Shown piece by piece: positions 32,808-62,508 of a stretch of 64,000 nt of DNA (its first letter is position 1; each line of letters starts with the position of its first letter). The notes beneath the pieces were generated by a model that was not told the origin of the DNA, did no database searches, and saw nothing but the letters and a program-made list of their open reading frames with translations. The position numbers were made by a program, and so were the translations under genes. Origin of the DNA: a virus; IMG/VR virus record IMGVR_UViG_3300045988_139610; one strand, written 5' to 3'.

Positions 32808-32849
32808 CTATACTTATATATTAACGGATAGTATAAAGAAATTACCTAT
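32808..32849 (-). promoter_or_regulatory. 45-bp promoter-like element, copy 1 (divergent)
   Basis: Minus strand: GATAGGTAATTTCTTTATACTATCCGTTAATATATAAGTATAGAAAGG. Confidence 0.45.
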
Positions 32850-32874
32850 CCGTCATAAAATTTATTAATTATTT

Positions 32875-33612
32875 TTATTTAGTACCCGACGAACCAATCC
32901 CACTCTTTCTAATTATATTACAATTATCTTCATCTGCTAATAAATATTTCTTGAATATCCCTTGCAAAATTCTTTCTCCTGCTTTTAATTCTACTGTTTT
33001 ATCTGTTAAATTTTTAAATTTAAGCCCTATATTCCCATCATTATCTGGATTACCATAATAATCACTATCTATAATTCCACATGTATTTACTAACATTAAT
33101 CCTTTTTTAAATCCAATGATACTTCTAGGTACTATTTCCAAATATTCATTATATAACATATATGCTTTGATATCTGTTTGTATTGCTTCGGATATACCAT
33201 GAGGTGGTATTTTAATATCTATTGGAGTTGATATATCATATCCTGCTGATTCACTAGTGGCACGTGTAGGTATTCTTATATCTACATTTGGATGTTTTCT
33301 AAATTCATCAGACACAATTTCAAATCCCCTTACCTTTTGTGAGACACTTTCCTCTATTTTTAATGTATTTGTTGTATAATCTACACCTAATATTTTAATT
33401 TCTGATTCATTTACTAATTCTAACGCATCTCCATACCAAAAATAATCAACATCGTTTAACACATAACATTTACCAAAGATAGCATTATAACGTATATCTA
33501 TTATTTCAAATTCCTTCCCTCTATATTTTAACATCTCTGGAATTATATCATGAAAATTATATTCATTTAAATCCTCTCTTATTCTTACTTTATCACCTAT
33601 ATTAAAATTCAT
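32875..33612 (-). CDS. dut: dUTPase with an extra ~85-aa N-terminal module
   Basis: dUTPase motifs SAGYDI, VPRS, GIIDSDYYG, GERILQ and RKSGIGSSG. The N-terminus is MNFNIGDKVRIREDL... Confidence 0.85.
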   Translation of the reverse strand: MNFNIGDKVRIREDLNEYNFHDIIPEMLKYRGKEFEIIDIRYNAIFGKCYVLNDVDYFWYGDALELVNESEIKILGVDYTTNTLKIEESVSQKVRGFEIVSDEFRKHPNVDIRIPTRATSESAGYDISTPIDIKIPPHGISEAIQTDIKAYMLYNEYLEIVPRSIIGFKKGLMLVNTCGIIDSDYYGNPDNDGNIGLKFKNLTDKTVELKAGERILQGIFKKYLLADEDNCNIIRKSGIGSSGTK

Positions 33613-33629
33613 ATTACATCTCTCCTTTA

Positions 33630-34127
33630 TTAATAATTTATATATTTTAACACATCTAAATCATTCATTAATATACCTATATTTTTGAACTCTTTATACG
33701 GTATACTTTTACGCTTGTTATTTTCTTTAAACTTTTTGATTGCTAGCCCACTCACCAAATACACTTCTTTAAATTCTCTAAATTCTATTATAAAGAATAC
33801 ATTATTTGCATAGTTTTGAATCTCATCAATTAAATCGTATTGATAGTCTTTTATATTTGAAAGAGGAAATGAAGTTTTATTAGCTGTTGTTTTAGCCTCA
33901 AATACTATGCTTTTTCCATTAGGTAATATACCTATGTAATCTAGACAAGGTGATTGTTTCTTAGGAAAAGCCGATATAATTTTAGCTCCTTTTCTTAATA
34001 CAGTAAATTCAGTTGGAATCTTAAATATATAAGCCTTTCCTTCTTTTCTATATTTTTCAAATTGTTTTGTTAATCTATTTTCAAATTTAGCACCTATTTT
34101 ATTACTTTTATTTGGTATAAGAATCAC
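33630..34127 (-). CDS. recU: Holliday-junction resolvase RecU
   Basis: LDYIGILPNGKSIVFEAKTTANKTSFPLSNIKDYQ closely parallels the Bacillus RecU core [33 protein letters not shown]. Confidence 0.85.
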   Translation of the reverse strand: MILIPNKSNKIGAKFENRLTKQFEKYRKEGKAYIFKIPTEFTVLRKGAKIISAFPKKQSPCLDYIGILPNGKSIVFEAKTTANKTSFPLSNIKDYQYDLIDEIQNYANNVFFIIEFREFKEVYLVSGLAIKKFKENNKRKSIPYKEFKNIGILMNDLDVLKYINY

Positions 34128-34154
34128 TTCCTTTCTTTTTAGATTATTAAAAAC

Positions 34155-34664
34155 TTATTTATTTTTGTCTTGCAATTTTTTAAGTCTTTCTATCTCTCTA
34201 TTTAAATACCAAAATCCTTTTTGAAGGTCTTCGAGTTCTTTATTTGGGTCTTTTTTTCCTGCTCGGGACACATATTTTATTACGTTTCCTCTAGCAAAAT
34301 TTAATTGTTTATCTTCTATAAAATCCATAACTTCTATGTTGCCATCTGTATAATGTGATGGATGATTAACAACATCATCTTCAATTTCTTTAGATATTTC
34401 AGAATCTTTCAAATCTGATTCATTTACTTTGTTCTCTTCTATTTTCGTATTCATATTATCATTCTCTTTTATTAATTCTAATACATTTTCTGACCAATCC
34501 CAGACTTGTTCATCTATATCTAACTTTATTATACCTTTACCAAAAGTACTTGTTACAATTGCCTCTTTATCTACAAACCCTTCCATATAACAATTACATC
34601 CAAATTCGCATTTACTCAAATCTCCTTTTATTCTAACTTTATCACCAACATTAAATTTGTTCAT
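34155..34664 (-). CDS. DUF3310 (SaV-like) domain protein with N-terminal GDKVRI module
   Basis: The C-terminal HPSHYTDGNIEVMDFIEDKQLNFARGNVIKYVSRAGKK...DLQKGFWYL fits the DUF3310 pattern. Confidence 0.7.
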   Translation of the reverse strand: MNKFNVGDKVRIKGDLSKCEFGCNCYMEGFVDKEAIVTSTFGKGIIKLDIDEQVWDWSENVLELIKENDNMNTKIEENKVNESDLKDSEISKEIEDDVVNHPSHYTDGNIEVMDFIEDKQLNFARGNVIKYVSRAGKKDPNKELEDLQKGFWYLNREIERLKKLQDKNK

Positions 34665-34680
34665 TAAATATCATCTCCTT

Positions 34681-34711: not shown

Positions 34712-34734
34712 AGAGTATATTTTATCACCTCCTT

Positions 34735-34778
34735 CCTTATATTACTGTATTAGCGTTAGTTATTTAAAAATTACCTAT
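34735..34778 (-). promoter_or_regulatory. 45-bp promoter-like element, copy 2
   Basis: Minus strand: AATAGGTAATTTTTAAATAACTAACGCTAATACAGTAATATAAGG. Confidence 0.55.
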
Positions 34779-34796
34779 TCACCACAAATTTATTAA

Positions 34797-34970: not shown

Positions 34971-34984
34971 AACATACCTCCTAT

Positions 34985-35615: not shown

Positions 35616-35660
35616 CCTTATATTATTGTATTAACATGACTTACTTAAAAATTACCTATG
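35616..35660 (-). promoter_or_regulatory. 45-bp promoter-like element, copy 3
   Basis: Minus strand: CATAGGTAATTTTTAAGTAAGTCATGTTAATACAATAATATAAGG. Confidence 0.6.
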
Positions 35661-36305: not shown

Positions 36306-39300
36306 CTAACATTTTGAGAATCCACATTTACATTGTAAACAAGACCCCACAGTTGATAATTCTTCACCACACTCTGGACATTTATGATATCTACTTGCAA
36401 ATGCAGTTTCTCCATATTCTTTTATATAATCTAAATCTTCTTTAGTTAATGCGTTTTCTTCGATTTCTTTTTGCTTATCATGATTGTAATAATTTAAATC
36501 TACTAATTCTTTTAATACTTCTTCTTGTAAATCATTTTCTACATCAAGCAAACAATATAATATTGATGCACCACAGCTATTTCCTTTTGAAACTTCTATA
36601 CCTTTGCCTTTGGCTCTAACATAACTAGGACAAGTTCCAGCACCCTTAAATGATTTTTCTAATGATTTTAAATTACCTCCTATTCTTAAATCATGACTCA
36701 TTGCTATAGCTAAATTTTGTATCCCTAAAGCACATCCACCTTTAGATGAATTGGTAACATAAAAATCAAATATTCTCTTTTCTGTAGGTATAATTCCTAT
36801 ATGTAAAGTCATAGAACCACAACCACTTTTTATTTTTCTACGAATTTCAATTATTGATTCTGGTCTTTTTTCCCATTCACCTCTTAATAATTGTTCCTTT
36901 TCTTTATTATCTTTTTCGTTATCTATTGTTAATATACCTTTTCTTATTTCATTAGGTCTAAATATAGTACAACCACTTATACCATTTTTCCAACATTTAG
37001 TGTAAACATCTTTAGTATCTTCAAATGAATATTCAGTAGGAATATTAATTGTTTTACTACAACTCATATCAACATGATAAGACACTGTGCTTAATATGTT
37101 AACGTGGTCATCAACTGATAATTCCATAGCTGTAACAAATTTATTTTTATCAACTATATTTTCTTCAGAATTAAATTCTAACCATTTTTCATAAACATAG
37201 TCTCTCATTTTAAAAATTTCTATATTTTCGTCGTCCTGCCCACCTATTTTTATTTGTCTGTCATATTCTAAACTAAATATAGGTTCTAATGAAGAAGAAC
37301 AGTTATTACCATATGAAAGAGAAAGAGTCCCAGCAGGAGCTACACTTATCAATCTCCCATTACGTATACCATAAAATAAAATTTTATCTTTTATTTTTTC
37401 CCATTCTGGATATTTTTCAATATGTTTTCTTATAAAATTACTTTCAACGAATTTATTTTTGTCTAAAAAATTAAATGAACCTTTTTCTTTGGCTAAATCA
37501 CAGCTTGTATCGTAAGCATTTAAAGATATAAAATTCATCAATTCATCTGTAAATTTTATCGATTCTTCACTCCCGTATCTCATATTTAACATTGCAAACG
37601 TATCGGCTAATCCTGTTATTCCTAAACCAATAGTTCTTATATTTTTTTGATAATTTTCAAATTGTTTTAAAGGATAATTGTTAATATCTATTATATTATC
37701 CAACATTCTAACTGCGACGTTTATAACCTTTTGTAATTTATCGTAATCCATTTTCGCATCTTTTGTAAATGGGGCAATTACAAAATTGTGTAAAAATAAA
37801 CTCCCTAAATTACAAGCACCCATATAATCTTTTTTAATTCCTTCATCGTCATATAATATTCCACTAATATATTCAGCACAGTTATGTGCAACATATCCTT
37901 CTATTATGCCCCAATGATTTTTAGGTTCTGTAAAATCATATACTAATTTTTTACCATTATCTTTAATACTTCTTACATAAGGTACTCTTGATTTTATTAA
38001 TTTATTAAGTTTTATTTTTTTATAAGTTTGATAAAACCCTATAAATTGTGCAAATATTAATATGTCATCATATTTATTTATATTTACATCATAACTTTCT
38101 CTACATTCATATTCTCCATTTTTAAATTCTACCATATGTTTTTTATTTATTGTTAAATTTGCTGTTATTCCAAAATCTTTTTCTAAGGTATTTATAAGTT
38201 CTGTGGCAAATTCTTTACAAGTTGTTTTATAACTTACCCTTTTATTTGAATTAACACACCCATTGGCTGAAAAACAACCTTGTAAAAAGTTTGCCTTTTG
38301 ATTTAAATCCCATTCATTATAAGCTTTAGGCATTGCTCTATTTGGTAAAATTTCTTGTGAGAATTGAAATTTTTTCAGTAAATCATTATATCCTTGTAAA
38401 TATATTTCTCTATATGATTTCACAGTATACTTGTCATTTTCAAATAGATATCTTACGTCACCATCTTTCTCACCTATATTAACTTCAATGCCTTCATGTG
38501 ATTCACTATTTAATCTACTTAACTGTCCATCACCTTGTATAAATCCTAATTTAATATATAAATCGTCATCTTTGATTGTTTTATATATTTTTGGCATAAT
38601 TTTTTTACTTTTTAAATCTTTAGCTTTACATTCTTCTCCGTCTATTGTCATAAATCTATGGTCTGGAGTACAAGTTATTTCTTTTCCATTTGAAAATTTT
38701 AATTTAATTGTATCTTTTTCTCCATTACACCATACTTTTCCTTTTGTTATCTCACCGTCATAACTATAAATTAAAGGTTCTGTATTACATAATTCTTCCA
38801 ATGTTTTATAACCATCTTGTGTTAATAGTTTCATATCTCCTGTAAAACATGGGTTGGTAGTTACTATATTTTCCATGTAATAAAGATTGTTATTTTTATT
38901 CATGTTGTCATAATATAAAACTCCGTATTCACCTGTGTTATAAGCTTTTGTTATAATCAAATCCCACAGTTCTTTAGCATTAACTTCTTTTTTTGTTTTC
39001 CATTTTGACTCTTCATTAATTATTTCACCGTAATCACTCATACAAGGGTATCTTAAATATATTTTTTGATTATTTTCTACAGCCTTCATAAAATTATCAT
39101 CTACTAAAACTGATAAATTAAAATGAGTCAATCGTCCTTCGTCCCATGATTTTGATTCTAAAAAATCATATATATCTGGATGATAAATGCATAAACAACC
39201 CATATTAGCTCCTCTACGACTTCCTTGTAGGACGGTATGAGTTTGACTATCAAATGCATTCATAAAACTAACTACACCACTCGCTACAGCGTCATTTGAA

Positions 39301-39650
39301 GTAGGTGTACCGTTAGGTCTCAATAAACTAAAATTGTACCCTGTTCCTCCACCTGCTTTTTGTGTTATAGCACCGTATTTAACATAATCAAATATTCCTT
39401 CCATGGAATCTGGTACTAAATTTAAAGTAAAACAATTATTAAGAGTCAATGTTTTCCCTATACCAGAATTACTCATAGTTCTTCCAGCAGGATAAAATAA
39501 TCCTTCTAACATAATTTTTTTAAATTCTTCACATTCTTTTTCATTAGTACTCACATATTTTGCCACTCTTTCTATAGACTCATTGAAAGATTCATTGTTT
39601 TTTCTATATCTATCTTCCCATATTTGTTTTGAAATTAAATTAGTTATCAT
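36306..39650 (-). CDS. nrdJ: Class II (B12-dependent) ribonucleotide reductase NrdJ, intein-containing precursor
   Basis: PAGRTMSNSG, GGGTGYNFSLLRPNG, SRRGANMGCL..HPDI and TTNPC..AEY match the NrdJ pattern. C-terminal Cys cluster CPECGEE..CLQCKC. Confidence 0.85.
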   Translation of the reverse strand: MITNLISKQIWEDRYRKNNESFNESIERVAKYVSTNEKECEEFKKIMLEGLFYPAGRTMSNSGIGKTLTLNNCFTLNLVPDSMEGIFDYVKYGAITQKAGGGTGYNFSLLRPNGTPTSNDAVASGVVSFMNAFDSQTHTVLQGSRRGANMGCLCIYHPDIYDFLESKSWDEGRLTHFNLSVLVDDNFMKAVENNQKIYLRYPCMSDYGEIINEESKWKTKKEVNAKELWDLIITKAYNTGEYGVLYYDNMNKNNNLYYMENIVTTNPCFTGDMKLLTQDGYKTLEELCNTEPLIYSYDGEITKGKVWCNGEKDTIKLKFSNGKEITCTPDHRFMTIDGEECKAKDLKSKKIMPKIYKTIKDDDLYIKLGFIQGDGQLSRLNSESHEGIEVNIGEKDGDVRYLFENDKYTVKSYREIYLQGYNDLLKKFQFSQEILPNRAMPKAYNEWDLNQKANFLQGCFSANGCVNSNKRVSYKTTCKEFATELINTLEKDFGITANLTINKKHMVEFKNGEYECRESYDVNINKYDDILIFAQFIGFYQTYKKIKLNKLIKSRVPYVRSIKDNGKKLVYDFTEPKNHWGIIEGYVAHNCAEYISGILYDDEGIKKDYMGACNLGSLFLHNFVIAPFTKDAKMDYDKLQKVINVAVRMLDNIIDINNYPLKQFENYQKNIRTIGLGITGLADTFAMLNMRYGSEESIKFTDELMNFISLNAYDTSCDLAKEKGSFNFLDKNKFVESNFIRKHIEKYPEWEKIKDKILFYGIRNGRLISVAPAGTLSLSYGNNCSSSLEPIFSLEYDRQIKIGGQDDENIEIFKMRDYVYEKWLEFNSEENIVDKNKFVTAMELSVDDHVNILSTVSYHVDMSCSKTINIPTEYSFEDTKDVYTKCWKNGISGCTIFRPNEIRKGILTIDNEKDNKEKEQLLRGEWEKRPESIIEIRRKIKSGCGSMTLHIGIIPTEKRIFDFYVTNSSKGGCALGIQNLAIAMSHDLRIGGNLKSLEKSFKGAGTCPSYVRAKGKGIEVSKGNSCGASILYCLLDVENDLQEEVLKELVDLNYYNHDKQKEIEENALTKEDLDYIKEYGETAFASRYHKCPECGEELSTVGSCLQCKCGFSKC
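37881..38849 (-). mobile_element. Intein with LAGLIDADG endonuclease domain (residues 268-590 of NrdJ)
   Basis: TTNP|CFTGDMKLL (block A), TCTPDH (block B), LGFIQGDGQL and FLQGCFSANGCV (LAGLIDADG x2), YVAHN|CAEY (HN plus the +1 Cys). Confidence 0.85.
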
Positions 39651-39675: not shown

Positions 39676-40443
39676 TTAATCTGTTATTTCAACTTCATAA
39701 GAATACATACCGTCATATAGCCTTTTAGGTATTAAGTCAAAGTAATAATCTGCTACTTCTTTAATATTCTTTTCTTTATAATATTTATATATTTCAAATC
39801 CTTTCTTTTGAGTTTCATAATAGCCTAAATATTCACATTTCGATTTTCCTGTTTCTGGATTAATCATATTACAACGTATTACATATTTACCATTTACAGG
39901 AGTTGTTCCTATCAGAGAATCACCTCTTGATTTATCACATTTAGTAAATAAACTATTGATTGTATGTGGCACAAAAATACAAGTTTCTGGACTATAAATT
40001 TTATTACCTTTAACTAATATATCTTTGTCCAAATGCATCCTTTCCCCTTCTACTTCATAATAATTTTCATAATACCATTTAGCGAAATTCTGAAAGTTAT
40101 GCCATTCATCACAAACTTCGCATCCAATGTAAGTCGGATTTCTTTTATGGAATTTATCAGAATAACATCTTTTTAGCATATCGTGCCAAACATCATAACA
40201 TTTTGTAGCCTTACTATTTTTACTTACTTTATATTTACCTTCCCCTAAATACCCCACTCCATATATACTTCTCTCATAAGGACATTTTATTTCACCTTTT
40301 TTAAAATTTCTATATGCTTTATTTTTAACCGTCCAATCATATTGAGGAAAATAAACGTCTATATCTATAGCCTTCCTATAATTAATAATTATCATCTCAC
40401 TTCCGAAGTTATTTATATTCTTTTCACCAGTTCTATCATTCAT
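39676..40443 (-). CDS. Free-standing HNH-like / AP2-domain homing endonuclease, paralog 1
   Basis: 255 aa. C-x2-C-x2-W-x-N-F and LDKDILVKGNKIYSPETC form an HNH-like core. C-terminal GTTPVNGKY...YLGYYETQKKGFEIY is AP2-like. About 60% alike by eye to ORFs 52481 and 56088. Confidence 0.55.
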   Translation of the reverse strand: MNDRTGEKNINNFGSEMIIINYRKAIDIDVYFPQYDWTVKNKAYRNFKKGEIKCPYERSIYGVGYLGEGKYKVSKNSKATKCYDVWHDMLKRCYSDKFHKRNPTYIGCEVCDEWHNFQNFAKWYYENYYEVEGERMHLDKDILVKGNKIYSPETCIFVPHTINSLFTKCDKSRGDSLIGTTPVNGKYVIRCNMINPETGKSKCEYLGYYETQKKGFEIYKYYKEKNIKEVADYYFDLIPKRLYDGMYSYEVEITD

Positions 40444-40454
40444 ATTATCACCTC

Positions 40455-40498
40455 CTTCATATTACTATATTAACAAAACTTTTATAAAAATTACCTAT
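40455..40498 (-). promoter_or_regulatory. 45-bp promoter-like element, copy 4
   Basis: Minus strand: TATAGGTAATTTTTATAAAAGTTTTGTTAATATAGTAATATGAAGG. Confidence 0.55.
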
Positions 40499-40502
40499 AA
40501 AT

Positions 40503-41372: not shown

Positions 41373-41418
41373 CCTTATATTTAATATATTAACAATTAAT
41401 GAGTAAAAATTACCTATG
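41373..41418 (-). promoter_or_regulatory. 45-bp promoter-like element, copy 5
   Basis: Minus strand: CATAGGTAATTTTTACTCATTAATTGTTAATATATTAAATATAAGG. Confidence 0.55.
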
Positions 41419-43451: not shown

Positions 43452-44492
43452 TTAATTATTTTTTAATAATAAATTTACAAATAATTCTTCCAAAACATTA
43501 ACAACTATACTATTTCCTGCTTGTTTATATAGTTGAGTATCACTAATTTTATTTTCTTTTAATTTAAAATAATCTTTATCGTCAAATCCCATCAATCTAA
43601 AACATTCTAGTGGTGTCAGCCTTCTTATATCATAGTTATTTATTTCATTAATTTTTTCTAATAAATCATTACTTGATAAAAATTTATTAGTATATTCTAT
43701 ATATTCATATGGTAAATCTATATCAATAATATAATTGTCGTCCATTCTACTTCCCGCTTTAGTAGTTAAAGTATATGCTATATTGGCATTCTTTTTAACA
43801 TGAGGTCTAAACTTAAATGTATTTCCTTTTTGTTCCTGTTTAAAACTATTATTTATATAAAAATCTTTTGTTTTTAATAAATTATATTTTTTATCTACAT
43901 TTTCTTCTAACAAGTCTTTTAATGTTATGGTAAGTTCTTTTTCTTCTGGAAATTCATAAGGTTTATGTTTACCTAATACACTTATACAATATATTCGTCT
44001 TCTATTTTGAGGAATTCCATAATCTATAGCGTTTAATACTTTATAATAAGATGTATATCCTATCTCTTCTAATACGTCGATATATTTTTGAAAATTATGT
44101 ATATGTTTTTTATGTAACACATTCCTTACGTTTTCCCAAATAACATATTTTGGTTTACAATGTTTTATTATCTCAACGCTATTCCACATCAAACTACTTT
44201 TTGTTCCACTACCTTCGTCAGCTCCATCTTGTGCCCCTACACTTGAAAAGCTTTGACAAGGTGACCCATGTGTTATAATATCTATATTTTTGGGCAAATC
44301 AAATATGTTTATTTTTGTTATATCTTTTAAATTTAATTCTTCTGATACGTTATGTATTATACTATAAGATTTACTGGCAAATTTATCTATTTCACAATAA
44401 TTAACCAATTCATAATCAACACCTATATTGTTCAATGCTTTTTCAAAAGCACCTATCCCACTAAATAAACTTAACATCCTCAACTTTTCCAT
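43452..44492 (-). CDS. DNA cytosine-5 methyltransferase
   Basis: Motifs LFSGIGAF (I), GSPCQSFS (IV), ENV (VI), QNRRRIY (VIII) and AGNSI (X). Confidence 0.9.
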   Translation of the reverse strand: MEKLRMLSLFSGIGAFEKALNNIGVDYELVNYCEIDKFASKSYSIIHNVSEELNLKDITKINIFDLPKNIDIITHGSPCQSFSSVGAQDGADEGSGTKSSLMWNSVEIIKHCKPKYVIWENVRNVLHKKHIHNFQKYIDVLEEIGYTSYYKVLNAIDYGIPQNRRRIYCISVLGKHKPYEFPEEKELTITLKDLLEENVDKKYNLLKTKDFYINNSFKQEQKGNTFKFRPHVKKNANIAYTLTTKAGSRMDDNYIIDIDLPYEYIEYTNKFLSSNDLLEKINEINNYDIRRLTPLECFRLMGFDDKDYFKLKENKISDTQLYKQAGNSIVVNVLEELFVNLLLKNN

Positions 44493-44520: not shown

Positions 44521-44564
44521 CTTATATTACAGTATTAACATAACTTACTTAAAAATTACCTATG
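44521..44564 (-). promoter_or_regulatory. 45-bp promoter-like element, copy 6
   Basis: Minus strand: CATAGGTAATTTTTAAGTAAGTTATGTTAATACTGTAATATAAGA. Confidence 0.55.
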
Positions 44565-44609: not shown

Positions 44610-44637
44610 AGTATACCATATTGTAAAAATTTGTCAA
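44610..44637 (-). promoter_or_regulatory. Sigma-A type promoter TTGACA-16-TATACT
   Basis: On the minus strand, TTGACA (44637-44632), a 16-nt spacer, then TATACT (44615-44610). Lies upstream of promoter copy 6 and the C5-MTase gene. Confidence 0.5.
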
Positions 44638-45821: not shown

Positions 45822-45850
45822 ATGATAACATATAAGATGATTAATGTCAA
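45822..45850 (-). promoter_or_regulatory. Sigma-A type promoter TTGACA-17-TATCAT
   Basis: Minus strand: TTGACATTAATCATCTTATATGTTATCAT, directly upstream of the RBS of the DGQHR gene. Confidence 0.55.
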
Positions 45851-51400: not shown

Positions 51401-51543
51401 TTTCCATGTTCTGTAAATGCAATAGCTTTCATGCCCAATTCTGATGCTCTTTTTATATAATCTTCTGATTTTGTTACAGAATCTATGTTTGTTGTAGCTG
51501 TAGATAAATCAGTATGAAGATGTAGTATTGTATAGTTTTCCAT
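48430..51543 (-). CDS. dnaE: DNA polymerase III alpha subunit (DnaE-like, N-terminal PHP domain)
   Basis: LHLHTDLS and AFTEHGN are PHP motifs. Length is 1037 aa. A DID-type aspartate region (SLADIDTDW) is present. Confidence 0.8.
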   Translation of the reverse strand: MENYTILHLHTDLSTATTNIDSVTKSEDYIKRASELGMKAIAFTEHGNILNWAKKKENCEKYGLKYIHGIEAYLTEMLDEKIRDNYHCCLYAKNYDGVKELNKLISKSFNRKDNHFYYTPRITLDELEQTSDNIIITSACLGGIFGKADKYIQDRYLKFFIKNKNRCYLEIQHHLDEKQVKLNQKLFKLAKENDLNLTVGTDTHALNEVHAKGRKILQQAKKINFSDEDKWDITFKTYDELIDMYQRQNAIPMNEVLKALENTNKIANSIETFDINREYKYPKLWDNPEELLKEKINKGIKEKGLNKLDNFKTEYLPRIKEELKTYKHNKAIDFLLLDEDIKSYARQNNRLPGYSRGSVSGSLVAYIIGLTDMDSIKHKLNFQRFMNVERVSLADIDTDWDKDDRKFIKEYIYNKEGLYCADIITFNTVALKGSIRDVGRALEIPLSEINEICDNIENKEEEYRALYPQLFEYVDIINGTIVSVGTHPCGLVCSPEPLDENMGLMSLSTCDYPVTMLNMKEIDSQNYVKLDLLALDNITLINKTCELLGIKRLNPNNVPDDEKVWKSIRDNTLGIFQWEGTGENYIKDLFSDETIANVKKYNPNFKYIDLFSVGNGAIRPAGASYREQLSKGIFKDNGHKALNEFLSPTLGYLVYQEQIIEFLNKFCGFSMGEADIVRRGFAKKTGTEQYIPKIKEGFTKTMKDEYGLSEEESNKIIVDFLKVIYDASSYLFSLNHSQAYSYIGYICGYLRYYYPLEFLTTMFNIYEGDIDKTKKIVDYAEKLNINLKNPKFRYSKSEYFMDKETNSIYKGLSSIKFISKNAGEILYNLKDNQYDSFIDLLIDIGNKINSKNINILIRLDFFSTFGTIPKLLKVYELYQTFYGKKQISKEKYPNLNKIFTKFAIKESDKMFKFNNTLPMLKYMESKVKNKENNTAQLIQDYFEFTGSCDIKDKSFGNKYLVVDIDTKYAPKITLYSLSKGKSTTIKIYKKHFKLNPLKLGDIIGIKDAQWKHKKKKVDDKWIQTEEKELIVESYKIY

Positions 51544-51555: not shown

Positions 51556-51599
51556 CCTTATATTAGTGTATTAACATTAGTACACAGAAAATTACCTAT
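51556..51599 (-). promoter_or_regulatory. 45-bp promoter-like element, copy 8
   Basis: Minus strand: TATAGGTAATTTTCTGTGTACTAATGTTAATACACTAATATAAGG, followed directly by AGGGG and the polymerase ATG. Confidence 0.6.
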
Positions 51600-51610
51600 A
51601 AATTTATTAA

Positions 51611-52480: not shown

Positions 52481-53260
52481 TTAGTCAGTTATTTCAACTT
52501 TATAAATATATAACGCTTGATATAATTCACTTGGTATTTTTCTTTTGAAGTAATCTGCAACTTCTTTTATGTTTCTCTCTTTGTAGTATTTATATATCTG
52601 AAATGCTTCCAACTCCGTATCATAATAACCTAAATGTTCTTGTTTTGATTTTCCAGTTTTTGGATTAATTATACGACATAGCACTCTATATTTACCATTT
52701 ACAGGAGTTGTCCCTATAACTGATTTACCTCTTTTATTGTCATTTTTAGTAAATAAGCCGTTGATAGTTTGAGGTACATATATGCAAGTCTCTGGGGAGT
52801 ATATTTTATTCCCTTTAACTAAAATGTCTTTATCTAAACACATTACTTCGTTTTTAACTGTATAATAGTTCTCACTATCCCAACTTCCAAAGTTTTGAAA
52901 ATTATGGAATTCTTCTGATGCTTCACATCCTATATATGTCGGTTCTTTTCCTTGATATTTGTCATCATAACATCTTTGTAACATATTATACCAACTTTGA
53001 AATACTCTAGTTAATTTCCCATTTTCGCTTACTTTATATTCCCCTTCGCCTAAATAGCCTATTTCAAAATATCTTCTTTCATATGGGCATTTTATATTTC
53101 CCTTTTTAAAATTTTGATATTTTGCTCCTTTAAAAGTCCAATTATATTCTGGAAAATATACATCAATATCCATACATCCTCTATACTCGACTATAACCAT
53201 CTCACTACCAAAGTTATTTATATTTCTTTCTCCTATCCTATTAATTTGATTTCTTCCCAT
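52481..53260 (-). CDS. Free-standing HNH-like / AP2-domain homing endonuclease, paralog 2
   Basis: Paralog of ORFs 39676 and 56088. Likely starts at MGRNQINRIGE, behind AGGAGGA, which overlaps the primase TGA stop. Confidence 0.55.
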   Translation of the reverse strand: MGRNQINRIGERNINNFGSEMVIVEYRGCMDIDVYFPEYNWTFKGAKYQNFKKGNIKCPYERRYFEIGYLGEGEYKVSENGKLTRVFQSWYNMLQRCYDDKYQGKEPTYIGCEASEEFHNFQNFGSWDSENYYTVKNEVMCLDKDILVKGNKIYSPETCIYVPQTINGLFTKNDNKRGKSVIGTTPVNGKYRVLCRIINPKTGKSKQEHLGYYDTELEAFQIYKYYKERNIKEVADYFKRKIPSELYQALYIYKVEITD

Positions 53261-53265
53261 ATTAA

Positions 53266-54279
53266 TCATCCTCCTATAATACATTCATCACAAAGTTTTT
53301 CAAATATTTCTTTCCCCTGGTCTGATGGAGATACTTTACTTCCTTTTTTCATATATTTATTTTCTTTATCAATCATTACTTTTATTTTTATATCTCGCAT
53401 AAAACAGCACGATTTAATAGTTTGAATATCTCGTTTTATAGCGTCTATTATTAAACCTTCGTCCATACACAAGACTATTTCTGAAACACCTAATTTTAAT
53501 AATTGTTCTACTTGAGTTATACTTATTTGGTTACCCCCTAATGCCGTAGTATTATGTACTCCGAAACTATCACATTGAAGCACAGATTTCTCTGCCTCGA
53601 AGATATATACCTCTTTACTTTCTTTGATGTATTCTTTATTCTGATATAGACCATAAAGATATTTGTGCTTAGGAAAAGGGATTAAAGGAAGGTATTTGAA
53701 ATTTGTTATTTCGTCTGAATCCAAATCTATACGACCCATGACTCCTATAATTTCTCCATGTTCATTATAATGAGGTATTGTAATGCGATTGTTCTCTTCA
53801 GAAAATCCTATATTAAATTTAACTTGACTCGAAGGTAATATACCGTCATCTGCGAAACGTTTAAACCATTTATAACCACTATTATATTCTTCTAAAACAC
53901 TTTCATCATAAGTCACTTCCTTTTCTTCATCTTCATAAGGTACATATAAGCTATCGAAGAAACCATCAAATAATACCTCTTCCTCTGGTTGATAATTACC
54001 TTCTATTTTCTTACCTAACATAGTTTGTGTTGTTTTTAATACTTCTCTATAGGTTAAACCTGTATGAGTAGCTATTAAACCGAATAAATCCCCATTATAA
54101 GACGTTGTAAAATCTGTAGCTGATAAATTATCATTTAATTTGATTCTACATCCACTAGGGTTATCTCCTCCTACTTTTGCACACCTAATCTCTTTATCTG
54201 TTATATTAATACTATGATAATTATAATAACTTAATATTTTTTCGATTTGTTCTGGATTATTTTTTAAATACTCTTTCAT
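53266..54279 (-). CDS. DNA primase (TOPRIM domain)
   Basis: YIFEAEKSVLQ (TOPRIM Glu) and IVLCMDEG (DxD-like). Lies next to the DnaB-like helicase. Ends in TGA. Confidence 0.6.
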   Translation of the reverse strand: MKEYLKNNPEQIEKILSYYNYHSINITDKEIRCAKVGGDNPSGCRIKLNDNLSATDFTTSYNGDLFGLIATHTGLTYREVLKTTQTMLGKKIEGNYQPEEEVLFDGFFDSLYVPYEDEEKEVTYDESVLEEYNSGYKWFKRFADDGILPSSQVKFNIGFSEENNRITIPHYNEHGEIIGVMGRIDLDSDEITNFKYLPLIPFPKHKYLYGLYQNKEYIKESKEVYIFEAEKSVLQCDSFGVHNTTALGGNQISITQVEQLLKLGVSEIVLCMDEGLIIDAIKRDIQTIKSCCFMRDIKIKVMIDKENKYMKKGSKVSPSDQGKEIFEKLCDECIIGG

Positions 54280-54292: not shown

Positions 54293-55852
54293 CTACTTTT
54301 TACCAAATTTATTATTTTGTTGATTAATATTCTTTCTAACAGGTCTGCACATACATCTTTCTTGGAATGTTCCACTAAAAGTATTAAAGCTCATTATAAT
54401 CGCTTCTTGAGTGTCCACTGCTGTAAGTGTATCTCTTGATTTTGCAATAAATAAAATTCTATAATGATTATTTGGATTTAATGTCACCTCTTCTTCTTCC
54501 CACTTACCTGTTTTTTCGTTCTTTACTCTTCTAAATGGATGACAATAAAATGGACTATCTTTATCTAGTTCTTGAGGGTATAAAGCTCTCATCATATATA
54601 ATCCATGCAAAATCTCGTTTATGGCTTTTGCACCACTCAACATCGACAGCGTTAAGAACAATTCACCGTCATAAGTTTGTGAAGTTTGAATACAACATAA
54701 TCCAACTACATCATACTTTTTACATAATGTATGCAACTCTCTTGAATCTCTAATTAAATCTTTATAAGATGCTTCTCCATTTCCTTTAAACTCTTGTTTA
54801 AATGTATCATATATAACAGCTGATATATTATGAGAATTTTTATATTTTCTAACTAATTTAGATAATCCACCCATATTAGTATCTAACATACTCGCTATAA
54901 TAATTTTATCTGATAAATTTTCATCATAATATTTTTTAGCTTGCTTAACCATTTCAATGTCTTCTTCTGATAATGTTCCACTTTTTATTTTTCTTTTATT
55001 AATCTTTTTATAATCCAATACGTTACATAATATATATACAATAAATGTCGTAAAGAAGTCTTCTATTTTTTGTTCATTAGTTACACAAAGAATTGTGTTA
55101 TCGTTAGTAGCTAAAGATAATATTAAGTTACTCATCCACGTTGTCTTACCACAGTTAACATTCGCGCTTAGCATTGATAAAGTCTGACGTTTCAGACCTA
55201 GTACCTCTTTACTAAGATAAGGCATAAAATTTGTATCTCCAACTTTATCAAACATTAGACCAATTTCCCCACCTTGTAATAAATTATCTATATATGAATC
55301 TGGTATATATCCTGTATGCTCTTTAATAGAATTATCTATGGATGTTTTAATATAATTATTTTCTCTGCTCTCTCTAAATGCTATTATTTCTTCACAAGTC
55401 ATATTTTTGAATAGTTCTAACCAAGATATGTTAATTATTCCTTTCTTAGTTTCTACTTGTATTTCTTGCTCTAAATTCAATCCATCGGCATAATAATTAA
55501 TTAATAAATTACTTTTTTGTAAATCATCTAAATAAGATTCAAAGTTTTTTAAATCTACAGTTCTTCTTAAAGTTTCAATTATTTTAAAACCACCATATTC
55601 TCTATATTGTTTTAATATATCGGCATTACAATTTAATCTGATTTCTGTGTCGTTTATTTTGTTAATTTTTTTATTAGATAATGTTTTTAATATCGTAAAT
55701 AAAAAACTCCCTTCTTCTGATATAAACAGCTCACTATCTATATCATAATCGTTTAATAGTACTGGGTCTTCGTATAAACAACCTAAAACACAGGCTTCTG
55801 AAGATTTTCTTCCTGTCTTTAGATAGTCTGGTAAATCATTATAATTTAACAT
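54293..55852 (-). CDS. dnaB: Replicative DNA helicase (DnaB-like)
   Basis: N-terminal E..VLGCLYEDPVLL pattern and Walker A NVNCGKTT. Length is 519 aa. Confidence 0.7.
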   Translation of the reverse strand: MLNYNDLPDYLKTGRKSSEACVLGCLYEDPVLLNDYDIDSELFISEEGSFLFTILKTLSNKKINKINDTEIRLNCNADILKQYREYGGFKIIETLRRTVDLKNFESYLDDLQKSNLLINYYADGLNLEQEIQVETKKGIINISWLELFKNMTCEEIIAFRESRENNYIKTSIDNSIKEHTGYIPDSYIDNLLQGGEIGLMFDKVGDTNFMPYLSKEVLGLKRQTLSMLSANVNCGKTTWMSNLILSLATNDNTILCVTNEQKIEDFFTTFIVYILCNVLDYKKINKRKIKSGTLSEEDIEMVKQAKKYYDENLSDKIIIASMLDTNMGGLSKLVRKYKNSHNISAVIYDTFKQEFKGNGEASYKDLIRDSRELHTLCKKYDVVGLCCIQTSQTYDGELFLTLSMLSGAKAINEILHGLYMMRALYPQELDKDSPFYCHPFRRVKNEKTGKWEEEEVTLNPNNHYRILFIAKSRDTLTAVDTQEAIIMSFNTFSGTFQERCMCRPVRKNINQQNNKFGKK

Positions 55853-55922: not shown

Positions 55923-55966
55923 CTTATATTATCGTATTAACATTAATTCACTAAAAATTACCTATG
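55923..55966 (-). promoter_or_regulatory. 45-bp promoter-like element, copy 9
   Basis: Minus strand: CATAGGTAATTTTTAGTGAATTAATGTTAATACGATAATATAAGG. Confidence 0.6.
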
Positions 55967-56087: not shown

Positions 56088-56879
56088 TTAATCTGTTATT
56101 TCTACCTTATAATTGTATAATGTATCATATAATTTTCTTGGTATTAAATTTTTATAATATTCTGCAACCTCTTTAATATATTGTTCTTTGAATTCTTTAT
56201 AAACTTTAAATGCTTTTTGTGGTGTATCATACGACCCTAAATATTTTGTTTTACTTTTATTTTCTTCAAAATCATATATACTAAAACTTGCTTGAAATTT
56301 TTTATCTCGTTTATTATAATGTACGCCTATAGGATATTCCCCTCGTTTATTACCCCTTTTAGTAAATAATATATTTATATTATTGGGTACAAACACGCAA
56401 TTATCTGGTGAATATATTTTATTCCCTTTATTTAGAATATCTTTATCTAAACACATTTTTTCATTATCAACCTCATAATAATTATTATCATACCACTCTG
56501 CAAAATTCTGAAAACACAACCATTCTTCACAGACTTTGCAATTAATATATGTTGGACGTTTTTTATGAAGTTTATCATCGTAACATCTTTTTAGCATATC
56601 GTGCCAAACATCATAACATTTTGTATTTTTACAATTTTCACTTACTTTATATTTACCTTCCCCTATATAAGCAACACCATAAACTCTTCTCTCATATGGA
56701 CAACTAATTTTGCCTTTTTTGAAATTATCATATGATACATTCTTGGCAATCCAATTATATTCTGTGAAACAAACATCAATATCTCTATTCATTCTGTATC
56801 CCACTATTATCATCTTACTACCAAAGTTATTGTAACCAATTTCCCCAACTCTATCTATCTTACTCCCCATAACCATCAC
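56088..56879 (-). CDS. Free-standing HNH-like / AP2-domain homing endonuclease, paralog 3
   Basis: Paralog of ORFs 39676 and 52481, sharing blocks such as NNFGSKMIIVGY, CPYERR, YDVWHDMLKRCYD, LDKDIL.KGNKIYSP and YKVEITD. Confidence 0.55.
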   Translation of the reverse strand: MMVMGSKIDRVGEIGYNNFGSKMIIVGYRMNRDIDVCFTEYNWIAKNVSYDNFKKGKISCPYERRVYGVAYIGEGKYKVSENCKNTKCYDVWHDMLKRCYDDKLHKKRPTYINCKVCEEWLCFQNFAEWYDNNYYEVDNEKMCLDKDILNKGNKIYSPDNCVFVPNNINILFTKRGNKRGEYPIGVHYNKRDKKFQASFSIYDFEENKSKTKYLGSYDTPQKAFKVYKEFKEQYIKEVAEYYKNLIPRKLYDTLYNYKVEITD

Positions 56880-56929
56880 CCCTTTATTAATTATTATATC
56901 ATAACCAAATTATTTATCAATAGATTTTA

Positions 56930-60256: not shown

Positions 60257-61176
60257 TTAATCACTTCCTTTATATCAAAAATATCATTTATAAAATTATT
60301 TAATTTAACATTGTTTAATGGAAAACCACTAGCTTTTGGATGACCTCCTCCACCAAATTGTTTAGCTATATCTGTTAAATTAATATCATCTTTAACAGTT
60401 CTTAATGATACCGTTTCTTTTTTAATTATAGCTACAAAATCTAATTCTTCATGTCTTTCACATAATATATTTCCTAATTCACTTGTGTAAGAGTCAGCCA
60501 TAACTATACCTATTTTATAAAGTTTAAAATCTTTAATTATAAGTTCTTTTTCTTTTATATTAATGTAATTATCTATTTCTTTTTGTTTTATTTCTAATAT
60601 TAATTTATCTGTTTCGCTAAATAATTCTTTATTATCTTTTATTCTATGCACCATATCATTAACGAATTTTTCTCTACCTAATATATAAAGCAAATCACTT
60701 AACTGTTTAGCTTCTTCGTTTCTAAATATTTCTTTCCATTCCCAAGTGTCATATTGTCTTACTAATTCAACAAAATCTTCAAGAGATTCATTATACAATC
60801 CTTTATTTAGTAATTTATCTAACAAATAAATAAAAGATAGATGTGTACCACTATCTTTTAATCCATCTAACATGTGTGTTGTTACATTTGCGAATGAATA
60901 TTTATTTAAATGAGTTGCTGACGGATGATGGTCTAATAATTGTACTTTTAAACCTTCTTTATTTATTATCTCTGCTAATTCTTCGTTTACAGATAAATCT
61001 GTTATAAATAATTGCTCGTAAATTCCAAATCTTAGTTCTTCCAATGATTGTTCTACGATGTCATTGACTTCATTATTTCCTACTGAAAGGACATCCGCTT
61101 TATCACCATATAAAAGTTTAAATACTACTTCACATCCTATCCCATCTAAATCGTTATGTGTTATTAATTTAATCAT
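60244..61176 (-). CDS. DHH-family phosphoesterase (RecJ/NrnA-like)
   Basis: THNDLDGIG, LLDHHPS and GGGHPKASGF are DHH/DHHA1 motifs. Confidence 0.7.
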   Translation of the reverse strand: MIKLITHNDLDGIGCEVVFKLLYGDKADVLSVGNNEVNDIVEQSLEELRFGIYEQLFITDLSVNEELAEIINKEGLKVQLLDHHPSATHLNKYSFANVTTHMLDGLKDSGTHLSFIYLLDKLLNKGLYNESLEDFVELVRQYDTWEWKEIFRNEEAKQLSDLLYILGREKFVNDMVHRIKDNKELFSETDKLILEIKQKEIDNYINIKEKELIIKDFKLYKIGIVMADSYTSELGNILCERHEELDFVAIIKKETVSLRTVKDDINLTDIAKQFGGGGHPKASGFPLNNVKLNNFINDIFDIKEVIKCQK

Positions 61177-61243
61177 ATATTAATCCTCCTCTTTAAATCT
61201 ATAATTTGTTTAGGTTTTCTATTACACGCTCCAAACATTTAAT

Positions 61244-61280
61244 CACCTCCACAGGGGAGTGGAGATTAATTAATCTCCAC
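61244..61280 (-). promoter_or_regulatory. Alternative-hairpin element overlapping an RBS
   Basis: Minus strand: GTGGAG-attaattaat-CTCCAC-tcccct-GTGGAGGTGA. The middle arm can pair with either flank, and the third arm contains a GGAGGTGA Shine-Dalgarno sequence. Confidence 0.4.
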
Positions 61281-61286
61281 TATTTA

Positions 61287-62378
61287 TTATTGTAATTTCG
61301 ATAAAATTTCAGTTAATTGTTTAGCATCTAATGATGCAACGCTTTTAACACCTTTTTCTTTCATATAATCTTTTACTATATTTTTATTTTCTGTTGTTTT
61401 AAGTTTGTCTTTTAATTGAGACTTTAACTCATCTACTGATTTTTGTTCTTCTTCTTTTTCTTGTTGTTCAACTTCTTGTTGTACTTGTTTTAAATCTTTT
61501 TCAGCTTGTTTCTTTTCTTCTTCTACTTCTTTTTTAACTTGTTCTTTATCTATTGGTCTGGTTGCTGAATTCCTCATACCTTCTTTTAATGTTTGTAAAA
61601 AGTTTTTAGCAAACTCTTTTGGGTCATCATTAACCACTAAATATTCGGGTACAGAATTTGAAGAGAATCTTGTTCCAGCTTCTACATATCCATCACCTCT
61701 AAAATACAAACGTCTTTCTGTTCCATTTAATTTTCCATCTATTATCGTTTTTTCAATTGTTCCAGTAAGAATTATATCAAATATATCACTGAATATATTT
61801 TCGTAAGTATTTGGTAAATTACTGGTTAATACCATATAACCCTCATCTGGATTCATATTTTTTTCTGTTATCGTCTTGATTTTAGTATGTGAGATTGCCA
61901 TGACACCAAAACCAGCTTTGTATAAAGTTGTAAAGTATTCTTTCAATAATGATTTGACTTTAGCTTGTCCAGAACCAAATCCATTATAGCATTGATTAAT
62001 TGACTTAGCAGGTTTACCTGTTTCTATTTGTGAAAGTCTGCAAACTTCCTTTTCTGCTATGCTTATTATTTCATCTACCGTATCGAAAGCCACCATTTCT
62101 ATATTATGTTCTTTACCTTTTTCTTTAATTAACCATTGTTGTAATTCTCTTAATTCTTTCCAAGTATCAGCATGAGTACATTGTAATTCATCCAGTAATG
62201 TCTCACCAAATTCATTCCCCAAAGAGATTAACAATCCTTTTTCTGGTTTATTATCATATTCTTCTAATATTATATTTCTGAATAAAGTTGATTTTCCCCA
62301 TTTTGGGATTGCCCTTAAATACATTCTCAATTTATTTATATCGTTTGTACTTTTATTTATTTTTATTTTTATACTCAT
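61287..62378 (-). CDS. Sak4-like / AAA_24-type RecA-fold ATPase with K/E-rich C-terminal tail
   Basis: Walker A AIPKWGKST and Walker B MVAFDTVDE. About 270 aa of core, then EEEKKQAEKDLKQVQQEVEQQEKEEEQK. Confidence 0.55.
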   Translation of the reverse strand: MSIKIKINKSTNDINKLRMYLRAIPKWGKSTLFRNIILEEYDNKPEKGLLISLGNEFGETLLDELQCTHADTWKELRELQQWLIKEKGKEHNIEMVAFDTVDEIISIAEKEVCRLSQIETGKPAKSINQCYNGFGSGQAKVKSLLKEYFTTLYKAGFGVMAISHTKIKTITEKNMNPDEGYMVLTSNLPNTYENIFSDIFDIILTGTIEKTIIDGKLNGTERRLYFRGDGYVEAGTRFSSNSVPEYLVVNDDPKEFAKNFLQTLKEGMRNSATRPIDKEQVKKEVEEEKKQAEKDLKQVQQEVEQQEKEEEQKSVDELKSQLKDKLKTTENKNIVKDYMKEKGVKSVASLDAKQLTEILSKLQ

Positions 62379-62463
62379 TACACATCTCTCCTTTTATTAA
62401 TTATTTTTAATTTGTTATTTTTATTTATATCTTATAACTAATATATTCTACATTTTAATCACC

Positions 62464-62508
62464 CCTTATATTATCGTATTAACAATTCTAACTTCAAAAT
62501 TACCTATG
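62464..62508 (-). promoter_or_regulatory. 45-bp promoter-like element, copy 10
   Basis: Minus strand: CATAGGTAATTTTGAAGTTAGAATTGTTAATACGATAATATAAGG. Confidence 0.6.

Follow-up and report, generated by a model that had tools for sequence, protein, structure and literature searches.

A repeated bipartite promoter-like element and candidate phage sigma factors in SPbeta-like phage-plasmids of the human gut

In phage T4, middle promoters combine a MotA box with a sigma-70 -10 hexamer and are read by host sigma-70 remodelled by AsiA/MotA. In SPO1, sigma-A serves the early genes, gp28 the middle genes and gp33/gp34 the late genes, and a small phage sigma redirects the host core polymerase to bipartite promoters unlike TTGACA/TATAAT (PMC13401047). 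The sigma factors gp36 of phiEco32 and gp47 of Salmonella phage 7-11 act with 6-8 highly conserved promoters at fixed genome positions; the promoters of 7-11 are bipartite, GTAAtg-(16)-aCTA, with starts 6-9 bp from the promoter element, and relatives with a diverged sigma carry a different motif at the same positions (PMC8948821). Here we analysed a 64,000-nucleotide stretch of virus DNA (IMG/VR record IMGVR_UViG_3300045988_139610; this whole stretch is referred to below as the window), in which a rigidly spaced element of about 45 bp stands in front of ten minus-strand gene blocks. We propose that these elements constitute a phage-specific bipartite promoter class for replication and nucleotide-metabolism ('middle') genes. 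Sigma-driven middle promoters are a known phage strategy, and the present case is most likely a further example of it, with a switch between promoter alleles as its most interesting feature.

Within the window, TAGGTAAT-N15-GTTAATA was matched ten times with at most one mismatch, always on the minus strand and in the interval from 32.8 to 62.5 kb (Table 1), which bears out the ten copies before gene blocks reported in a preliminary description of this DNA. Dinucleotide shuffles gave 0.10 ± 0.30 matches to the same pattern, with a maximum of 1, and 0 of 100 shuffles reached 10. No copy was found on the plus strand or in the structural arm of the window (plus arm, 1-31.3 kb), which encodes tail and lysis proteins. 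As for the anatomy of the element, an A/T-rich stretch, often AAAATAATTAATAAATT, lies upstream. The -35-type box (cATAGGTAATTTTT) and the -10-type box (TGTTAATAy) come next, with 10 nt of free spacer between them, and at the 3' end a conserved start region (TAATATAAGG) fuses into a Shine-Dalgarno (SD) sequence. The gap between the -35-like and -10-like boxes was 15 nt in 10/10 copies, and TAGGTAAT-N15-GyTAATA, equivalent to GGTAAT-N17-TAATAy, holds for all of them. Eight copies have a second spacer of 3 nt, and that of copy 5 (41418) has 4 nt; the second spacer deviates in copy 1 (32850), which had rightly been called divergent and ends in the tail GTTAATATATAAGTATAG. Two details had to be corrected. 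The coordinates in Table 1 give lengths of 43, 45, 45, 45, 46, 44, 45, 45, 44, and 45 nt for copies 1 to 10, rather than 45 nt in seven copies and 46 nt in two, and TG precedes the -10-like box in seven copies, not eight (CG at 32850 and 34779, AG at 48427).

All ten copies are intergenic and co-oriented with the downstream gene block. The element had been described as running, in most copies, straight into the SD of the first gene. This does not apply to copies 34779, 48427, and 62508, where an orphan SD comes next and the actual gene starts 40-70 nt later. After the orphan SD, an ATG-stop mini-open reading frame (ORF) was present in two of these three copies (48427 and 62508). The one-codon ORFs behind the strong SD of the element read ATGTAA at 48371-48366 and again at 48364-48359, and ATGTAG at 62453-62448, and the genes after them begin 40-70 nt on with an SD of their own; these start-stop ORFs may form a ribosome-loading or 5' mRNA-stabilizing module, or may be the scar of a cassette insertion. 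The window lies within the 133,615-bp human-gut metagenome contig ENA ERZ916593 k127_3831, found by exact-protein look-ups (record coordinate = window + 49,718), and at least three further copies lie in the next 13 kb of this contig, at window-equivalent positions of ~65.9, ~71.8, and ~77.3 kb. The statement that the element drives the whole minus-strand arm was too strong, because three strong, near-consensus sigma-A-type promoters, all intergenic, and a terminator are interspersed with the copies (Table 1). Those at 44610 and 45822 had been listed as plain sigma-A promoters that look different from the element, and they do.

In its -35 region, the element does not resemble a sigma-A promoter. 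As noted previously, nothing like TTGACA occupies the -35 position: GGTAAT matches this hexamer at 1/6 positions at a distance of 17 bp, TAGGTA matches at 3/6 but at a distance of 19 or 22 bp, and no TTGACA-like sequence lies 16-18 bp upstream of the -10 box. The -10 region can be read in two registers. In the first, TGnTAATAy, the match to TATAAT is 3-4/6, and 45% of instances have C at -7; in the second, TAyAnT at +28 to +33, the match is 4-6/6 in most of 186 instances collected from related contigs, without TG. The extended -10 box that had been proposed is accordingly one possible register, but TAyAnT, three bases downstream, is an equally good or better hexamer. None of the ten copies gave a good sigma-70 score. 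The scan floor of 9/12 was reached only by copies 40499 and 62508, a level no commoner than in shuffled sequence. Generic sigma-70 scans give chance-level counts in DNA of 27% GC, and only near-perfect intergenic matches were kept. Genuine promoters of the form TTGACA-N17-TATAAT, which look quite different from the element, occur frequently at other places in this phage family. What the copies share with bipartite promoters of the sigma-70 family is a fixed, sequence-free spacer and an intergenic, co-oriented position at leader distance from the SD or start codon.

An exact-pattern scan of IMG/VR returned at least 108 loci with the element, and between 8 and 18 copies were present on each of at least 13 long contigs, most of them 126-140 kb in length. 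In the typical layout, 10-13 copies lie along a ~60-kb replication arm, and an extra cluster of 3-5 copies on the opposite strand lies beside a plasmid replicon, heading the other arm. In the 186 unique instances, cATAGGTAATTTTT, TGTTAATA, and TAATATaAg were conserved and TAGGTAAT(TTT) was nearly invariant, while the 10-nt and 3-nt spacers were almost without information. An SD-like AGGAGG begins 38-45 nt past the T of TAGG in 125/186 instances, and 41 of the 127 instances with a start codon have ATG followed directly by a stop. At the site 5' of the gene for DNA polymerase III alpha (PolIII), all three boxes are kept in seven loci. The PolIII proteins of these loci share 40-99% identity with that of the window, and the boxes persist even where identity is only 40-60%, with variable spacers and flanks. 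It follows that selection acts on the boxes and that their likeness does not stem from recent copying.

We also scanned one genome per species for 185,579 bacterial and archaeal species. This gave 62 scattered matches, and the sole double match was on a 2.8-kb contig of a gut metagenome-assembled genome with a phage gene (a YonV homologue). The element is therefore not a host-regulon promoter class. The complete record of Clostridioides phage pCD1602_4 has neither the element nor a homologue of the sigmaX-type sigma factor described below; a motif considered as its equivalent there, ACTATAAATATT, was rejected as a 120-nt coding tandem repeat. In an isolate-derived IMG/VR contig of 130.8 kb (L185), the element was absent from the 23 kb examined, a sigma-A-type promoter stands at the orthologous position, and the contig was not among the returns of the sigma scan. 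We consider it highly probable that the element is a transcription-initiation signal specific to this phage family.

Neither the window nor the neighbouring regions examined first yielded a sigma-like gene. The preliminary description had likewise found no candidate factor in the window and had recommended searching the remaining genome for a sigma-like protein. The route to such genes was the neighbourhood of an MrpR-like protein in relatives, where two to three tandem genes for small Sigma70_r2 proteins lie ~6 kb downstream. On the window's own contig, two genes of this kind were located 18.5-19.8 kb past the right end of the window and on the same strand (record 133,502-132,259): sigma1 (196 aa, L219:114-704) and sigmaX (190 aa, P0057, L219:785-1357), a homologue of the second of the tandem proteins. 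SigmaX matched the NCBIfam model TIGR02937 with 43.5 bits (cut-off 42.9) over profile positions 25-163 of 165, covering both domains, and its paralogs scored 46-54 bits. The family is labelled 'RNA polymerase sigma factor' in PHROGs (matches of 1e-10 to 1e-13), and the profile matches of the phage sigma in the PDB were the sigma factors 8x6g_H and 3mzy (Fusobacterium 'sigma-H', a full-length match). An AlphaFold2 model of sigmaX had a pLDDT of 70.7, and its top ~40 Foldseek matches in the PDB were almost all sigma factors, although these matches were weak (E 0.02-0.8, TM ~0.3).

In 12 of 13 loci, the promoter immediately preceding the sigma operon is TTGACT-N16-18-TATAAT (with TATGAT or TATACT as the -10 hexamer in two loci) and not the element, and the early region around the operon is rich in canonical sigma-A promoters. 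In the sigma-operon promoter (L219:40-67, ~19.8 kb past the right end of the window, and 11 related sigma loci), the -35 hexamer occupies the centre of a palindrome. The arms of this palindrome vary between phages yet stay complementary (CTTGCCAAA/TTTGGCAAG, TTTACTAGAA/TTCTAGTAAA, TTCTCATTAGA/TCTAATGAGAA), and L213 is chimeric; the arrangement is suggestive of a hairpin or of an operator of the immunity type that gates the sigma cascade.

Some relatives carry a second promoter allele, tAAAGGTGAyTTTT-N10-TGTTAATAT-ATAAsTATAA, which we call class B. Spacing and -10 box are the same as in class A, the form described above. The -35 box (AAGGTGAT, the counterpart of class A TAGGTAAT) is changed at three positions, and the start block is different. 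Just 3' of PolIII, at the position orthologous to copy 7, class B takes the place of class A in three relatives. By an exhaustive IMG/VR scan, class B was found only on contigs 123101, 135797, and 108657 and on one 5.6-kb fragment. L189 has copies of both classes in tandem, and copy 1 of the window and some copies of relatives are hybrids of both classes.

We compared these promoter alleles with the sigma genes of the same genomes; sigma loci were recovered for 13 contigs. Intact sigmaX with the region 4.2 sequence ISKTLNVSSVTINRKINLIK was present in 10/10 long class-A-only contigs and in the window's own contig. A different sigma, sigmaZ, whose region 4.2 is IADKKGCTKNCIHKKVKRIQ, was found in 123101, 135797, L180, L181, and L223; in direct comparison, region 4.2 reads CTKNCIHKKVKRIQ in sigmaZ versus VSSVTINRKINLIK in sigmaX. 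In 123101, L180, and L181 (the latter two being independent ENA assemblies), a 1-nt deletion immediately ahead of the helix-turn-helix disrupts sigmaX, and sigmaZ is present in addition. The same lesion occurs in three independent assemblies, so sigmaX is here a recent pseudogene or contains a frameshift site. The frameshifted gene lies at L180:17479-18047 and L214:5953-6600, and its downstream frame is still intact. In 135797 and L223, sigmaZ was present and sigmaX was not detected; L223 has a class B copy 5' of a Rha-like gene, a position at which a class A-like copy stands on the contig of the window. Promoter alleles and sigma alleles thus co-occur. SigmaX and sigmaZ have a common region-2 stretch, FI....YNS(Y/F)N.Y(L/I)R, matching the -10 box shared by the two promoter classes, whereas sigma1 differs from both in regions 2 and 4.2 and is mosaic among class A genomes. 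This comparison therefore favours sigmaX over sigma1 as the reader. The earlier suggestion of a phage-specified sigma factor or activator in place of plain host sigma-A thereby gains computational support, from the two sigma-70-family genes, from the co-variation of alleles, and from the relatives that lack both the sigma and the element.

With moderate confidence, we interpret the elements as middle promoters read by a phage-encoded sigma factor after sigma-A has transcribed the sigma gene. Host sigma-A polymerase would transcribe the early region, including the two-gene operon of sigma1 and sigmaX, from TTGACA-N17-TATAAT promoters. A phage sigma, most likely sigmaX, would then bind the host core polymerase; its region 4.2 would read TAGGTAAT and its region 2 the TGTTAATA box. 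The polymerase would in this way be directed to at least 13 class A promoters, 10 in the window and at least three further up the arm, and in relatives the phage sigma would also serve the small cluster heading the opposite arm. Initiation is predicted within TAATATAAGG, ~6-9 nt past the -10 box, and would give very short leaders starting just before AAGGAGG.

Several observations speak against a dedicated phage sigma. TAyAnT (e.g., TATAGT, TATAAT, or TACAAT) is a respectable sigma-A -10 hexamer, and host sigma-A together with an activator is therefore conceivable. The conserved region is also long for a sigma factor: besides the start block it takes in ~20 nt at and about the -35 box, more than is usually needed. 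Contig 135797 carries six class A copies and no detectable sigmaX, so a strict rule pairing sigmaX with class A and sigmaZ with class B fails, which points to cross-reading or to another factor. Moreover, the sigmaZ genomes are few and of a narrow lineage, with a single protein cluster at 90% identity, and the co-variation of promoter and sigma could therefore reflect shared ancestry. The MrpR-like protein is also only ~60% identical between the class A and class B groups.

Some wider interpretations are offered tentatively, and as a set we regard them as doubtful. SigmaX/TAGGTAAT and sigmaZ/AAGGTGAy might be orthogonal pairs caught switching, with sigmaX freshly frameshifted. The whole lytic programme of the plasmid-prophage might be gated singly at the sigma-A promoter of the sigma operon, whose -35 hexamer lies within the palindrome, unlike the direct repression of ten promoters in SPbeta. 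The built-in SD with its one-codon ORF might act as a module for ribosome loading or mRNA stabilization.

The window phage is a siphophage, distantly SPbeta-like, with a plasmid lifestyle. Its minus arm encodes a ribonucleotide reductase (RNR) with an intein, PolIII, a DnaB-like helicase, ThyX, thymidine kinase, dUTPase, and RecU, as well as two DNA methyltransferases, a DndB/YopQ-like and a YonV-like protein, and an inserted ISL3 transposase. The gene order of this arm follows that of yor-yos-yot in Bacillus phage SPbeta, and the backbone (YonV, YopQ-like, YopX, PolIII, DnaB-like, RNR with intein, and RecU) is collinear with that of SPbeta. Phage-plasmid features are found in relatives, namely a Rep_3 initiator with iterons, an actin-like partition protein, and a Xer-like recombinase. 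On the related IMG/VR contig L058 (1340-2600), the Rep_3 gene is preceded by CCCTTAAAAACACATAT iterons and stands back-to-back with three element copies in ~430 bp; this replicon is that of a phage-plasmid, in contrast to the integrating SPbeta. The nearest GenBank record is the unannotated pCD1602_4, with a PolIII 64% identical. By megablast, no near-identical annotated phage was found and the sole match was a 56-bp HNH fragment, and a literature search returned nothing on the element or on transcription in these ~135-kb phage-plasmids.

Compared with the described systems, the locus shows both likenesses and differences. As in SPO1, the promoters stand before middle (replication) genes and the sigma operon itself lies behind a sigma-A promoter. 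The gp28 consensus, AGGAGA-N17-TTTnTTT, differs from that of the element, however. SPO1 is also a strictly lytic myovirus, whereas the present phage is a temperate SPbeta-like phage-plasmid in which two paralogous sigmas are co-transcribed. The motif swap at the same positions in relatives of phiEco32 and 7-11 is the class A/class B pattern seen here. Those phages, unlike the present one, are Gram-negative podoviruses whose promoters serve late genes, and the switch in our phages is confined to the -35 box and region 4.2; to our knowledge, the phiEco32 and 7-11 sigmas are unrelated in sequence to the present ones. The SPBRE/MrpR system of SPbeta shares with our phages a related backbone, about ten copies of a conserved, promoter-associated element before lytic gene blocks, and, in relatives, a gene for an MrpR_C_cat protein. 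The SPBRE consensus TAGACAAATACAAAWAATATGTATATAAT, derived from ten MrpR-bound promoters, includes sigma-A hexamers with a 17-nt spacer. By contrast, the element is without canonical sigma-A hexamers and has no likeness in sequence to SPBRE beyond TAG. SPbeta has no homologue of the present sigmas, and YonO was not detectable in the sequences available for the window phage family. T4 middle promoters are similar in that a phage-specific box replaces the -35 hexamer at a fixed distance from a -10-like hexamer before replication genes, but no MotA/AsiA-like proteins were identified here and dedicated sigma genes are present. Finally, Firmicutes sigma-H promoters have the consensus RNAGGAWWW-N11-12-RNNGAAT, and ATAGGTAAT fits RNAGGAWWW at 7/8 specified positions. 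Unlike sigma-H promoters, the element has TTAAT/TAATA instead of GAAT at -10, its spacing is 2-3 bp longer, and its motif is not multi-copy in any host genome, and as a whole it does not belong to the sigma-H type. In a comparison with the consensus sequences of sigma-E, K, F, G, H, TcdR-type, and extracytoplasmic function sigma factors, only the sigma-H -35 came close, and none fitted the whole element.

A different explanation, a serious rival although we consider it unlikely, is that host sigma-A uses TAyAnT or TGnTAATAy as -10 box together with a phage DNA-binding protein at TAGGTAAT. This protein could be an activator or sigma-appropriation factor of the T4 MotA kind, or an MrpR-like master repressor that has its operator there and keeps the lytic genes silent in the plasmid-prophage, as MrpR does through SPBRE in SPbeta. 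The 4-6/6 match of TAyAnT to TATAAT in most instances suits such a model, and so does the collinearity with SPbeta, in which the ten SPBRE sites at lytic promoters bind MrpR (PMC10516654). Several SPBRE sites, as derived here, abut the SD as well. The MrpR-like protein of relatives (290 aa) has its best PDB matches with SPbeta YopR/MrpR (E = 0.009) and a precomputed Pfam assignment to PF22823 MrpR_C_cat, and its gene, with its own sigma-A promoter TTGTCA-N17-TATAAT, lies immediately 5' of the first element copy of the long arm; the protein, too, differs between the groups with class A and class B promoters (~60% identity). A homologue was not seen in the readable part of the window's own contig. 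However, SPBRE holds sigma-A hexamers (TAGACA-N17-TATAAT), whereas the element never has a TTGACA-like -35 hexamer, and a model with a repressor only leaves the lack of such a -35 hexamer in every copy unexplained, the sigma-A promoters of the same genomes being near-consensus. Phage pCD1602_4, in addition, keeps an MrpR-like gene (35% identity) and has no element. Two boxes at fixed spacing and an allele switch confined to the -35 box fit a two-domain sigma better than a regulator with a single site, and for the activator variant no protein like MotA or AsiA turned up among ORFs of which many lack annotation.

Mobile promoter cassettes are known from T4-type phages (PeSL cassettes), and the copies could in principle be alike through the recent spread of a promoter/ribosome-binding-site cassette (stop codons, promoter, SD, and ATG) that needs no dedicated factor. 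The layout is real: AAAATAATTAATAAA often lies upstream of the element, and SD and ATG are built in, with the ATG-stop in 41/127 instances being what would be expected of a cassette dropped before an existing SD and gene. The hybrids between allele classes (copy 1 and some relatives) and the tandem of class B and class A in L189 are of the same tenor. Nevertheless, free spacers and flanks with fixed boxes over 186 instances and at 40-60% PolIII identity indicate purifying selection on the boxes, and mobility leaves boxes that are not of the sigma-A type unexplained. We regard a cassette without a dedicated factor as improbable, and mobility as such can be accommodated by the sigma model and does not compete with it.

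It is very improbable that the element is the promoter of a phage-encoded RNA polymerase, either YonO-like or of the single-subunit T7 type. The SPbeta-like backbone would allow it, since SPbeta has YonO, and the conserved start block recalls the promoters of phage polymerases. Against this, tblastn searches with YonO were negative in the window, in ~220 related loci, and in the complete pCD1602_4 record, Pfam and PHROG scans of the available regions, which leave ~40 kb of the window's own contig outside, showed no such family, and the structural arm, where YonO acts in SPbeta, is without the element. An RNA-level signal (a processing site, a structured leader, or a translational enhancer) might be suspected from the position of the element, which ends at the SD between genes of one long co-oriented arm, but we give it hardly any credence: six copies folded as RNA gave z-scores of -0.7 to +1.1 with no structure, the window had no Rfam match, and two boxes separated by a sequence-free spacer of fixed length are a DNA-recognition pattern.

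The sigma-factor interpretation yields a testable transcription map for uncharacterised SPbeta-like phage-plasmids of ~135 kb that recur in many human-gut assemblies, leading from sigma-A early promoters through the phage sigma operon to at least 13 middle promoters. Two or three small sigmas and two promoter alleles that differ in the -35 box amount to a natural experiment on DNA reading by region 4.2, and the sigma/promoter sets might be a source of orthogonal expression parts for low-GC Firmicutes. In genomes of the SPbeta type, the control of lytic genes has apparently been solved twice, by a repressor acting on sigma-A promoters together with YonO in SPbeta and by a sigma cascade here. 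Should the link to the sigma be wrong, the element would still be a strongly selected, family-specific control signal.

Table 1. Element copies and sigma-A-type signals of the minus-strand arm (window coordinates; the 5' C/T of each element copy is at its higher coordinate, and all downstream genes are on the minus strand).
Feature	Position	Strand	-35-like box	-10-like box	Remarks	Downstream genes
Copy 10	62464-62508	minus	TAGGTAAT, 62506-62499	GTTAATA, 62483-62477	SD and ATG-TAG mini-ORF 62453-62448	AAA_24/Sak4-like 61287-62378; RecJ-like DHHA1 protein; AAA ATPase
Copy 9	55923-55966	minus	55964-55957	55941-55935		DnaB-like helicase 54293-55852; primase-like; AP2/HNH-like paralog; PDDEXK nuclease
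Copy 8	51556-51600	minus	51598-51591	51575-51569	abuts SD of PolIII	DNA polymerase III alpha 48430-51543
Copy 7	48383-48427	minus	48425-48418	48402-48396	AG instead of TG; SD and ATG-TAA 48371-48366	117-aa gene 47964-48317; ThyX; N6 methyltransferase
Copy 6	44521-44564	minus	44562-44555	44539-44533	~50 nt downstream of canonical sigma-A promoter	C5 DNA methyltransferase 43452-44492; thymidine kinase; YonV-like protein
Copy 5	41373-41418	minus	41416-41409	41393-41387	second spacer 1 base longer	154-aa and 140-aa genes, no assigned function
Copy 4	40455-40499	minus	40497-40490	40474-40468		255-aa AP2/HNH-like paralog 39676-40443; RNR large subunit with intein 36306-39650; HNH endonuclease
Copy 3	35616-35660	minus	35658-35651	35635-35629	perfect consensus match	three small genes (112, 77, and 57 aa)
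Copy 2	34735-34779	minus	34777-34770	GCTAATA, 34754-34748	orphan SD, then ~70-nt leader	DUF3310 protein; RecU; dUTPase
Copy 1 (divergent)	32808-32850	minus	32848-32841	32825-32819	tail GTTAATATATAAGTATAG resembles class B tail	last six small genes of the arm; arm end ~31.4 kb
Sigma-A-type promoter	44610-44637	minus			TTGACA-16-TATACT with TG; between terminator 44681-44656 and copy 6	
Sigma-A-type promoter	45822-45850	minus			TTGACA-17-TATCAT with TG	DndB/YopQ-like gene 44686-45810
Sigma-A-type promoter	56893-56920	minus			TTGATA-16-TATAAT with TG	AP2/HNH-like paralog 56088-56879
Terminator	44681-44656	minus				

Further observations concern individual genes of the window. The DndB/YopQ-like gene has its own sigma-A promoter and is therefore not under the element; this promoter and the terminator behind the gene insulate it from the putative element-driven units, which suggests that it is expressed in the plasmid-prophage state. 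In SPbeta, yopQ adjoins the repressor gene yopR. Between two element copies, the replication arm carries an inserted ISL3-family transposase gene (62684-63997, minus). The exact transposase protein was found only in contigs of this phage and in no host chromosome, and gave no host identification. The intein of the RNR large subunit contains a LAGLIDADG endonuclease, like bnrdE of SPbeta. Three paralogs of 255-267 aa on the minus strand (39676-40443, 52481-53284, and 56088-56879) have mutual identities of 56-66% and one weak AP2 match. Many more copies occur at varying positions in relatives, and these AP2/HNH-like paralogs are probably a family of free-standing homing-endonuclease-like genes.

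In the plus arm, the tape-measure gene (6157-14828) is split into ORFs 6157-8364 and 10863-14828. Between the two parts lie ORFs 8422-9228 and 9536-10519 and the GC-richer non-coding segments 9229-9535 and 10520-10862; these insertions look intron-like with endonuclease genes, yet gave no Rfam match at the gathering score. A possible late-promoter motif of the plus arm, TTCGCAATTTAAAAAnATTGCGTA, was rejected, as in relatives it lies inside tail-fibre genes and codes for SQFKDIAN. Its two window copies (1451-1474 and 5026-5049, plus), which lie in non-coding DNA, are therefore remnants of tail-fibre exchange, not regulatory sites, and no late promoter class was found.

A stop-rich, A/T-rich repeat, AAATAATTAATAAA, has 20 exact copies in the window, where fewer than one would be expected. 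Plus-strand copies are at 5205, 8387, 10700, and 29417. On the minus strand, the 5' coordinates are 30090, 32874, 34802, 35674, 36201, 39675, 42874, 43461, 44590, 45877, 47389, 47670, 51616, 56087, 56939, and 62406. All but one of the copies (19/20) are co-oriented with the genes of their own arm, the minus copy at 30090 falling inside the plus arm. The repeat is located at gene junctions, either just 5' of a promoter of either class or directly before an SD. Its possible roles include those of an UP-like element, an operator, a site of translational stop or standby, and a recombination junction.

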